Virus record (IMG/VR): IMGVR_UViG_3300045988_142892
Length of the DNA stretch: 64,000 nucleotides
Reading direction: 5' to 3' (one strand)
Source: a virus
The translations under genes and the position numbers were made by a program. Shown one piece after another: positions 4,649 through 4,797 of the stretch; the stretch's first letter is position 1; every line of letters begins with the position of its first letter. Below the pieces are notes generated by a model. The model had not been told where the DNA came from and did not search any database. It saw only the letters and a program-made list of their open reading frames with translations.

Positions 4649-4797
4649 GGGGTGGTAAGTCAAAGGCTAGACTAGGCGACTTATCTGTGAGTAGTTTAAA
4701 TGGTAAAATAACGGTAGTACTACGAAGATTTAGGTTCAAGGCCTAATTCACAGGCCAAATCGCTCAATGGTGAGTTCGAGTCTCCCTCGCCCTACCA
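4649..4797 (+). tRNA. tRNA gene with about 73 nt of intervening sequence in the anticodon loop (anticodon undetermined)
   Basis: 5' half: acceptor ggggtgg, D-arm agtc-aaaggcta-gact, anticodon-stem 5' ggcga. 3' half: anticodon-stem 3' tcgct, variable caatg, T-arm gtgag-ttcgagt-ctccc, acceptor tcgccct, A, CCA. About 80 nt of loop plus insert lies between the stem halves. Confidence 0.5.

Follow-up and report, generated by a model that had tools for sequence, protein, structure and literature searches.

The interrupted tRNA-Ile(UAU) gene

The locus described here lies in a 64,000-nucleotide stretch of viral DNA (IMG/VR record IMGVR_UViG_3300045988_142892), referred to below as the window, and comprises a plus-strand tRNA gene, tRNA-Ile(UAU), whose anticodon loop is interrupted by a 73-nt element that is itself shaped like a tRNA. 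The 5' exon (nt 1-36 of the tRNA, positions 4649..4684) is formed by the acceptor strand GGGGTGG, the dinucleotide TA, the D arm AGTC-AAAGGCTA-GACT, a single A, the anticodon-stem strand GGCGA and the loop part CTTAT, which ends with the anticodon TAT. The 3' exon (nt 37-76, positions 4758..4797) comprises the loop adenines A37 and A38, the anticodon-stem strand TCGCT, the variable loop CAATG, the T arm GTGAG-TTCGAGT-CTCCC, the acceptor strand TCGCCCT, a discriminator A and CCA. Both exons are supported by the sequence, by the product spliced in silico and by covariation, and the 5' exon also by insert-free relatives. The original prediction of one tRNA gene interrupted in its anticodon loop was confirmed, the insert being exactly 73 nt long and all the listed elements being present, but the description of the T arm and acceptor needed minor correction, as the T stem contains one U.C mismatch (50:64) and the acceptor stem three G.U pairs.

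In its default mode ARAGORN reported 21 tRNA genes in the window and 4649-4797 was not among them; its intron mode likewise left the interrupted tRNA-Ile of the window uncalled. After deletion of 4685-4757 in silico the program calls a normal 76-nt tRNA-Ile(tat). Removal of the element with its CCA leaves the loop CTTATAA, which has the canonical 7 nt, U33, the anticodon UAU and A37. The junction predicted in the RNA reads ...GGCGACUUAU|AAUCGCU..., and the predicted spliced-junction sequence of the outer tRNA-Ile is CTAGACTAGGCGACTTATAATCGCTCAATGG.

Insert-free alleles were found in several of the retrieved loci and contigs, which are labelled here with L-numbers. L002 and L009 contain an uninterrupted tRNA-Ile(tat) with the loop CTTATAA at exactly the syntenic site, the body of the tRNA being different from the window exons. 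A scan for the predicted junction identified insert-free tRNA-Ile(TAT) genes in L381-L386, where the D arm, anticodon arm and variable region are near-identical to the exons of two of the backbones described below (A, the window type, and B). The core common to the exons and to the insert-free relatives is GGCRACTTAT|AATYGC. Because the insert-free alleles show the loop CTTATAA, the gene is identified as tRNA-Ile(UAU) with the junction CTTAT|AA between nt 36 and 37, and we hold this identity and these boundaries with high confidence. The anticodons CCA, TCA and TAA that had been considered are wrong, and the intron mode of ARAGORN made the same error on the relatives ('Trp CCA'). The alleles of L002 and L009 are those that the original prediction had proposed to look for, and the two halves belong to one gene rather than to two separate and complete tRNAs. 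The window phage is TAG-recoded, with in-frame TAG codons in many open reading frames (ORFs) and a suppressor tRNA(CTA) at 7729-7801.

A tRNA-shaped element within the anticodon loop

The intervening sequence (4685..4757, plus strand) is recognised as tRNA-shaped by the Rfam model RF00005 (tRNA), by compensatory changes and by our own covariance model. RF00005 matches 4685-4754 with 34.6 bits against a gathering score of 29 (E = 9.8e-6), and our model of the insert gives 85.9 bits at 4685..4757. The acceptor 5' strand (4685-4691) pairs with the acceptor 3' strand (4747-4753) in the 7-bp stem CTGTGAG/TTCACAG. Between them, on the same strand, lie a D arm (4694-4709, GTTT-AAATGGTA-AAAT), a short hairpin in place of the anticodon arm (4711-4725, supported by compensatory changes) and a T arm (4730-4746, TTAGG-TTCAAGG-CCTAA), and the element closes with a discriminator G (4754) and CCA (4755-4757). 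The two junctions of the insert lie exactly where a mature tRNA would have its 5' terminus and its 3' terminal CCA. This tRNA shape with its terminal CCA, which the original prediction had missed, is the most informative feature of the locus.

The 5-bp anticodon stem and 7-nt loop of a decoding tRNA are absent from the inner element, which has 9 nt where the RF00005 model has 11. Its stub stem is 72.5% paired and, by reading of the aligned sequences, consists of 3-4 bp capped by a GNNC tetraloop. The inner element is a tRNA mimic and not a decoding tRNA. The ordinary tRNA closest to the insert model is the tRNA-Met(cat) of the phage (1138-1213, 47.7 bits), a score too weak to name a source gene. 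No ORF is present within the inserts.

A kissing-loop dimer formed through a 6-nt palindrome of the inner loop (AGTACT, AGCGCT, TGCGCA) was considered and dropped, there being only three variants and an imperfect copy in L287 (AGTACA). All the palindrome variants fit one closing pair plus a GNNC tetraloop, and the related free-standing element described below has a plain 5-bp stem with a 4-nt loop. Folding energy is unremarkable (the 149-nt RNA has z = -1.1, the inserts have values near -2) and does not single out the locus, so the support for the folds rests on covariation.

Conservation and covariation in relatives

Ten IMG/VR contigs of 32-197 kb were retrieved with the upstream 172-aa ORF as anchor, and the interrupted tRNA-Ile was identified at the same place in 5 of them. 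Scans of IMG/VR, of a metagenome collection and of a genome collection brought the set to 21 distinct variants from many independent assemblies, distributed over three very different backbones: A (the window type), B and C. The variants all come from human-gut assemblies, in phage contigs of ~160-200 kb.

In an alignment of 10 sequences, 94.1% of the pair cells are standard pairs and 21 pairs are changed on both sides. None of 500 shuffles reached the observed pairing and covariation values, and registers slid by 1-3 columns were only 37-50% paired. The outer acceptor stem is 100% paired with 4 of its 7 pairs changed on both sides, and the anticodon stem is also 100% paired. Double changes affect 5 of the 7 pairs of the inner acceptor stem, and the inner T stem and hairpin covary as well. 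As we read the alignment, G.U pairs occur in the stems but A.C mismatches do not, which points to a fold of the sense-strand RNA. Both the outer and the inner fold are backed by covariation, and the interrupted gene is neither a product of chance nor an assembly artefact.

One backbone-C copy, in L287 (6150-6305, minus strand), has its 5' exon and the first part of the insert replaced by unrelated sequence and is a truncated or rearranged pseudogene.

The INPHARED phage collection contained no relative of the locus, its sole match being the neighbouring tRNA-Arg. The bacterial genome collection yielded only two matches, both in gut contigs of metagenome-assembled genomes that resemble misbinned phage, and gave no clue to the host. 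These are L367 (CAMELE010000001.1, 163,874 bp, 'uncultured Mollicutes bacterium'), which is nearly identical to the window, and L378 (CAMFER010000065.1, 'uncultured Clostridium sp.'); both carry the interrupted gene and look like phage genomes binned as bacteria. Two further search patterns, CTTATN7TAGTTTAAA and ACTTATN{60,90}CCAAATYGCY, were too loose: the matches listed included chance matches, and no true cases were added from among them.

The same design in other tRNA genes

A second interrupted gene of the window is tRNA-Gln(UUG) at 7268..7466 (plus strand), identified by the intron mode of ARAGORN, which mislabelled it as tRNA-Glu(ttc), and converted to tRNA-Gln(ttg) by rule-based splicing. 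Its exons (7268-7302 and 7426-7466) are separated by an insert of 123 nt (7303-7425) placed between nt 35 and 36, in the loop CTTT|GAC. The closing 7-bp stem of this insert, CTCAAAA/TTTTGAG, adjoins the T-arm-like GTTGG-TGCAAGT-CCAAC and is followed by the 4-nt tail CCCT. The interrupted tRNA-Gln is kept in L001-L008 and L010, and insert-free tRNA-Gln genes with the same anticodon arm exist.

Further cases were found with the intron mode of ARAGORN and a script of our own. The same tRNA-Gln carries a different insert of 66 nt in L271; tRNA-Lys(UUU) is interrupted by 58 nt in L013 and L021 (mislabelled as Met by ARAGORN) and tRNA-Pro(UGG) by 87 nt in L003 and L005. In L095 a fourth tRNA-Ile(UAU) backbone contains an insert of 59 nt without any anticodon arm. 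The covariance model of the 73-nt insert scores the 66-nt Gln insert at 46 bits, which indicates that these two are related.

The six insert/tRNA combinations (73/74, 59, 66, 123, 58 and 87 nt) share a 7-bp closing helix, whose 3' strand stands directly after a 5-bp T-like arm, and a 4-nt tail. The tail is mostly GCCA or ACCA, with CCCT, CCCA or CTCT in the Gln insert and ACTA in the Pro insert. When the acceptor-delimited element plus 4 nt is removed, a 7-nt loop and the expected ARAGORN tRNA are obtained in all six. With a tail of 4 nt this rule gave 55 confirmed calls, against 0-5 with tails of 0-3 and 5-8 nt. Applied to 2.0 Mb of unrelated viral loci, namely the matches of the two loose patterns, it identified no cases, and a scan of the whole window without the T-arm requirement returned only the Ile and Gln genes. 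The insertion point varies (36/37, 35/36 or 34/35), yet every 5' exon ends in U, all four tRNA species (Ile, Gln, Lys and Pro) have U34, and the junctions restore U33 and a purine at 37 in every combination. Across the inserts the acceptor/T minihelix, the elbow elements and the 4-nt single-stranded tail are constant, whereas sizes and middles vary (58-123 nt, with or without D and hairpin arms).

A free-standing element of similar shape is located in L009 (6018-6090, plus strand) between ordinary tRNA genes. It comprises an acceptor stem, a D arm, a T arm and an ACCA end, with a 5-bp stem and 4-nt loop for an anticodon arm, scores 42.6 bits on the insert model, is called 'tRNA-??? (ca)' by ARAGORN and is apparently un-nested.

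These regularities bear on the view that a selfish insertion has killed the tRNA genes, in which case there would be no splicing and RNase P and 3' processing would release at most a free tRNA-like RNA and two useless halves. The existence of insert-free alleles indicates that the insert is dispensable, the outer tRNA of the window backbone has weak stems, a 5'-truncated copy is found in L287, and AUA represents only 13% of the Ile codons of the window; all of this would suit a dead gene. Selection would not, however, preserve intact exons and loops in dead genes, and here, in 21 variants on three or four divergent backbones, the exons have stayed intact and covary, with the fully paired and four times double-changed outer acceptor stem given above, while the perfect 7-nt loop with U33 and purine 37 returns in six independent combinations. 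In addition, neither ARAGORN nor the rule-based scan identified another tRNA-Ile(UAU) or tRNA-Gln(UUG) in the window. Inactivation of the genes is accordingly considered unlikely.

Mobility of the inserts

Precise presence and absence of the insert between near-identical syntenic genes was identified for tRNA-Gln (L271 against L275 and L286), tRNA-Pro (L003 and L005 against L006) and tRNA-Lys (L013 against L014). The tRNA-Ile inserts of L279 (backbone B) and L014 (backbone C) are identical in 72 of 73 positions, whereas the exon bodies around them are only 65-70% identical; between the window and L001 the exons are 97-100% identical and the inserts 85%. Near-identical inserts in divergent exons, together with the presence/absence pairs, indicate that the inserts move between host tRNA genes, an exchange which to our knowledge has not been shown before. 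They form a class of polymorphic, horizontally exchanged, tRNA-shaped inserts in the tRNA-Ile(UAU), tRNA-Gln(UUG), tRNA-Lys(UUU) and tRNA-Pro(UGG) genes of TAG-recoded human-gut phages of ~160-210 kb.

The flanks that the inserts share measure only some 10 and 7 nt, a length insufficient for ordinary homologous recombination. Immediately before the inserts stands TTAT, CTTT or TTT, motifs that resemble one another without being the same. Miniature elements of the IS200/IS605 type (PATE), with which the inserts may be compared, lie 3' of a fixed tetra- or pentanucleotide, have subterminal hairpins and use the transposase TnpA in trans. In the inserts one end pairs with the other and G.U is tolerated in the stems, which that family does not show. 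The element may also spread at the RNA level: once a nuclease has broken an anticodon loop, a mature tRNA-like RNA would be joined into the break, and the product would be turned into DNA again. With such an insertion by ligation, insertion and excision would be mirror images.

Intron classes considered

A group I intron was tried and rejected. The insert contains no catalytic core, has 73 nt against ~200 nt or more and ends in A4757 instead of G, and no Rfam family besides tRNA matches 4550-4900, even at E <= 10; the earlier judgement that it is too short for this class is upheld, no group I model matching it. T4684 does supply the U that precedes the 5' splice site of group I introns, but the same base is preferred by bacterial RNase P at position -1, so it does not discriminate. 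The statement that all known tRNA introns of bacteria and phages belong to group I is outdated, since short non-group-I 'enigmatic' introns have been reported in tRNAs of Lak megaphages (PMC6784885).

The same Rfam search argues against a small self-cleaving or self-splicing ribozyme, or cleavage by a ribozyme in trans, as it gave no match to hammerhead, twister, hepatitis delta virus (HDV), pistol, hatchet or other small self-cleaving families in 4550-4900, and the 123-nt Gln insert has no Rfam match at E <= 1. The U preceding the 5' junction, a base that group I introns also have there, would agree with a ribozyme, and so would the presence in the window of an HDV-like (theta-type) candidate directly after the suppressor tRNA and of a RAGATH-33 RNA after a tRNA-Leu (both described below), which suggest that RNA-based tRNA processing is in use. 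The insert is nevertheless short, ends in A and not in G, and its conserved features are those of the tRNA top half, for which we know of no catalytic activity. A ribozyme is thus very improbable.

An intron of the archaeal or eukaryotic type, in which a bulge-helix-bulge (BHB) is cut by a splicing endonuclease and the exons are joined by RtcB or by a healing-and-sealing ligase, is equally improbable. Eukaryotic tRNA-Ile(UAU) genes also bear introns, and the phage carries a kinase, a phosphoesterase and a ligase, that is, a healing-and-sealing set. By inspection, however, the outer anticodon stem is set off from the inner acceptor stem by nothing but a 5-nt/6-nt internal loop, with neither a 4-bp central helix nor paired 3-nt bulges, and insertion is at 36/37, 35/36 or 34/35 and not at 37/38. 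No splicing endonuclease was identified among the 44 window proteins scanned (Pfam, NCBIfam and PHROGs), a scan that left out much of the window, and none is known to us in bacteria.

A proposed removal pathway and the RNA-repair genes

As the boundaries of the insert are the ends of a mature tRNA, the most likely of the removal models is one in which the tRNA end-processing enzymes of the cell treat the insert as a tRNA. RNase P would cut at its 5' end, after U36 of the outer tRNA, and an endonuclease acting on tRNA 3' ends would cut after position 76 of the insert. The outer tRNA body would keep the exon ends (3'-OH and 5'-phosphate) close to each other, so that an ATP-dependent RNA ligase of the phage could join them into a functional, AUA-reading tRNA. 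All the enzymatic steps of this pathway are inferred, and the pathway is put forward as tentative. For the complete statement, a tRNA-Ile(UAU) with a mobile tRNA-shaped insert that is removed by end-processing enzymes and a ligase, the chances appear evenly balanced.

Several features of the inserts resemble those of RNase P substrates: a 12-bp acceptor/T helix, the T loop T[TG]C[AG]A, GG in the D loop, an NCCA tail in most classes and U at -1 in all four tRNA species. The acceptor/T minihelix with elbow and tail is the module recognised by RNase P, RNase Z and the CCA-adding enzyme. Bacterial RNase P is said to prefer U at -1 and to bind the RCCA tail, as reportedly found by Zahler et al. in 2003 and in Kirsebom's work. 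Precedents for a cut after position 76 are the RNase Z of Thermotoga and the E. coli RNase BN acting on CCA-containing precursors.

The candidate exon sealer is a DRB0094/Rnl-like, ATP-dependent RNA ligase at 35173..36552 (plus strand), which matches phrog_968 'RNA ligase' over its full length (E = 4.6e-64) and TIGR02306 in its N-terminal half (E = 8e-11), with weak matches to PF09414 and PF21189 below the cut-offs; it may act in the splicing proposed here. It forms part of a large set of RNA-repair type encoded on the plus strand between 26844 and 41684, which comprises a DUF2828/DUF7788 protein, a major-vault-protein-like (MVP-like) protein, an RlaP protein, metallophosphatases, the ligase, NADAR and a P-loop kinase with a phosphoesterase. 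The RlaP-family nucleotidyltransferase (RNA-ligase-associated, Pol-beta type) is located at 32676..33482 (plus strand; PF10127 with 23.0 bits, at the cut-off; phrog_388, E = 7e-21), and the biochemistry of its family has been described (PMC12776372). Pfam identified the P-loop kinase (AAA_33) at 40609-41139 and the metallophosphoesterase at 41124-41684, both on the plus strand; together (40609..41684) they could be a Pnkp-like end-healing pair, which would be needed only if the cuts left 5'-OH and cyclic-phosphate ends. Kienbeck et al. (PMC10879173) reported a 140-fold enrichment of DRB0094-family ligase among related recoded gut phages but had no convincing role for it; exon ligation would supply one.

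The DUF2828/DUF7788 protein (26844-28424) and the MVP-like protein (28542-31040), both assigned by Pfam on the plus strand, may form an RNA-binding platform and are possible partners for released tRNA-like RNAs, DUF2828 being presumably TROVE/vWA-like; a link to the insert is speculative. For one phage to encode both a vault-like and a DUF2828 protein is already unusual. According to PMC7824862, RNA repair by phage ROT/TROVE proteins involves a tRNA-like RNA as their partner. These proteins raise the alternative that the tRNA-shaped RNA is the selected product, serving as partner or scaffold for the DUF2828 and vault-like repair proteins or as a decoy for host nucleases that target tRNAs; nesting in a tRNA gene would then secure co-expression and processing, and splicing could still take place. 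The free-standing element of L009 and the conservation of insert structure while the sequence drifts are in agreement with this, as are the two proteins and the ROT/TROVE precedent. On the other hand, inserts are dispensable between close relatives, and their sizes and middles vary greatly while the acceptor/T minihelix and the tail length stay constant, which fits a processing signal better than a specific ligand. A selected product of this kind is regarded as improbable.

Several points weigh against the pathway of RNase P, a position-76 cut and ligase. That the gene is spliced at all is something we infer from the sequence, and the outer tRNA of the window backbone is mediocre, as its acceptor stem has three G.U pairs and positions 50:64 stay mismatched. 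The weakness of the model lies in the 3' cut: the canonical RNase Z site is behind the discriminator and not behind position 76, and no 3' endonuclease candidate was identified, the HxHxDH motif of metallo-beta-lactamase (RNase Z-like) proteins being absent from the window ORFs searched. Tails other than CCA (CCCT, CTCT, ACTA) imply that a CCA-reading enzyme cannot explain all the cases. In the Lak introns the 5' splice site is not at the 5' end of the inner tRNA, so RNase P alone is no general solution for the wider class. Ligases of the DRB0094 type have, as far as is known to us, been characterised on nicked duplexes and not on anticodon-loop breaks. Finally, the ligase is also present in relatives without the Ile insert, which makes the co-occurrence of ligase and insert uninformative; that comparison comprised 71 loci, with contigs of backbones B, C and D not among them.

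Comparison with known systems

The closest known systems are the introns of Lak megaphages. According to Devoto et al. (2019), Lak tRNAs 'contain enigmatic introns', the intron of the tRNA-Thr 'itself may encode a tRNA' and insert-free alleles exist (PMC6784885); Wei et al. (2026), working with 262 genomes of alternatively coded jumbo phages, mentioned introns whose sequence 'could encode another tRNA' (PMC13037316). Full-text literature searches returned no paper on tRNA-shaped introns as such and no proposed removal mechanism. The Lak introns are likewise short (79-114 nt), non-group-I inserts of the anticodon loop in TAG-recoded gut phages with known insert-free alleles. All four, re-read from Table S6 of PMC6784885, carry on their 3' side a tRNA-like module made up of a 7-bp acceptor stem and a T arm; within the Thr intron Rfam detects a tRNA. 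They differ in an extra 5' module of 27-31 nt (a small hairpin and an A/T-rich, TTAAATTAAA-like linker), present in all four, in the short spacing of 2-3 nt that separates the exon from the inner acceptor stem, and in a 5' splice site away from the 5' end of the inner tRNA. The insert of the window, in contrast, is solely a tRNA-shaped element from its first base, and both its junctions are mature-tRNA ends (N-CCA tail). The lineages also differ in genome size (~160-210 kb in the window lineage against ~540 kb in Lak) and in the tRNAs hit, which here are Ile-UAU, Gln, Lys and Pro. The window type is a simpler and distinct variant of the known but unexplained Lak-like introns.

In each of the four Lak introns of Table S6 (PMC6784885) the exon sequence on the anticodon side is similar or complementary to the stem of the 5' hairpin. 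Examples are the pairing of exon CTGT with ACAGG...CCTG of the intron and of exon TTGT with ACAATC...GATTG, which hints at a role as a guide or in an alternative pairing.

Like the inserts, group I introns occupy the anticodon loop, have a U preceding the 5' splice site, are polymorphic and mobile and occur in the same phages, but the inserts lack a catalytic core, have 73 nt against ~200 or more, end in A and not in G, and adopt a tRNA fold. In L009 a tRNA with an Arg-TCT-like body (~3080-3300), located after the tRNA-Ile (2891-2965), is interrupted after ...CCAGCCTTC by a long insert with a GIY-YIG-like ORF (GIYKITNKFNNKVYIG). This is probably a group I intron with a homing endonuclease, in which case two kinds of tRNA introns coexist in this phage group.

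BHB introns, removed by EndA/TSEN with RtcB or Trl1, resemble the inserts as short, non-catalytic sequences of the anticodon loop that need removal by a protein or ribonucleoprotein (RNP) and a ligase. Here there is no BHB, the sites vary from 34/35 to 36/37, a whole tRNA-like domain would be the recognition element, and the expected ends are 3'-OH and 5'-phosphate if RNase P and RNase Z cut. The intron of eukaryotic tRNA-Ile(UAU) is needed for pseudouridylation of its anticodon, which suggests a possible control of U34/U36 modification in the phage gene. The T4 system of Pnkp and Rnl1 is similar in that, when the anticodon loop has been broken, a phage ligase rejoins tRNA halves held by the tRNA body, and the window has a corresponding set of enzymes. 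In T4, however, the break is damage by the host (PrrC), whereas here it would be a programmed step of maturation, and the ligase is DRB0094/phrog_968-like and not Rnl1.

Embedded, non-decoding tRNA shapes that set RNase P and RNase Z cuts also occur in MALAT1 mascRNA, in mitochondrial 'tRNA punctuation' and in plant t-elements. There the flanks stay apart, whereas those of the inserts would need religation. In the bacterial Y RNA YrlA the acceptor end of the tRNA-like domain is closed, and its anticodon stem makes the connection to the remaining RNA. The likeness to YrlA is that of a non-decoding tRNA mimic in a genome with a DUF2828 protein (presumably TROVE-like) and RNA-repair genes; the topology is the reverse, and no Rfam Y RNA matches 4550-4900. 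The tRNA-like domains of Y RNAs are bound by Ro/TROVE proteins (PMC4201824).

The inserts could represent a third, protein- or RNP-based route of tRNA splicing in phages, separate from both group I self-splicing and the BHB endonuclease route, where a mobile tRNA mimic would be excised by end-maturation enzymes, the exons joined by a repair ligase, and the element possibly spread at the RNA level; this is a conceivable but doubtful reading.

Other features of the window and its relatives

Upstream of the interrupted gene a consensus scan identified a promoter-like site, TTGACT-17-TATAAT (3884..3912, plus strand, 11/12), preceded by a terminator-like hairpin at 3846-3879 from the same kind of scan. 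The site is probably the start of a transcript containing the ORF at 4119-4637 and the interrupted tRNA. This 172-aa ORF had been guessed to be CYTH-like, a guess that was rejected as no Pfam or NCBIfam family matched it; its sole match is phrog_6660, of unassigned function. In the window only the first ~35 nt of a tRNA-Leu(aag) are left (~3936-3970, plus strand), the remainder and the adjacent tRNA-His(gtg) having been lost; both genes are intact in relatives (3678-3842 in L001), and the loss is a clean deletion between short similar sequences. In L003, L005 and L006 an additional ORF (4517-5220) is inserted between the 172-aa ORF and tRNA-Ile(tat). Both in-frame TAG codons and Cys motifs are numerous in it (MPNALDITGQRFGRLVALKK...CQCDCGN...), and it is guessed to be a homing-endonuclease-like gene.

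Directly after the suppressor tRNA(CTA), which has no encoded CCA, an HDV-like ribozyme candidate is located at 7802-7856 (plus strand; RF02682, 27.7 bits, E = 0.011, below the gathering score), an arrangement that fits the 'theta ribozyme' (PMC10879173). Downstream of tRNA-Leu(taa) (21944-22035), at a distance of 13 nt, a RAGATH-33 RNA occupies 22049-22177 (plus strand) with 126.8 bits, more than its gathering score; the literature search gave no mention of RAGATH-33. Rfam also called a tRNA at 1215-1290 (plus strand, 39.1 bits) that ARAGORN did not report, directly after the tRNA-Met(cat) at 1138-1213.

Implications

The elements that are new here are the Ile-UAU identity, the rule that the insert boundaries are mature-tRNA ends, the exchange of inserts between host tRNA genes and an enzymatic model that can be tested. 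The window carries the simplest possible form of such an intron, the tRNA-shaped module alone, so that the question of its removal becomes testable on a transcript of 149 nt. tRNA finders miss or mislabel genes of this type (Ile as Trp, Gln as Glu, Lys as Met). If the proposed removal is true, the tRNA inventories of gut phages and the codon reassignments deduced from them are biased in consequence, the pathway would be the first enzyme-dependent tRNA splicing pathway among bacteria and their phages, the so far unexplained RNA-ligase enrichment of recoded gut phages would acquire a function, and the inserts would be a new kind of mobile element that exploits tRNA maturation.

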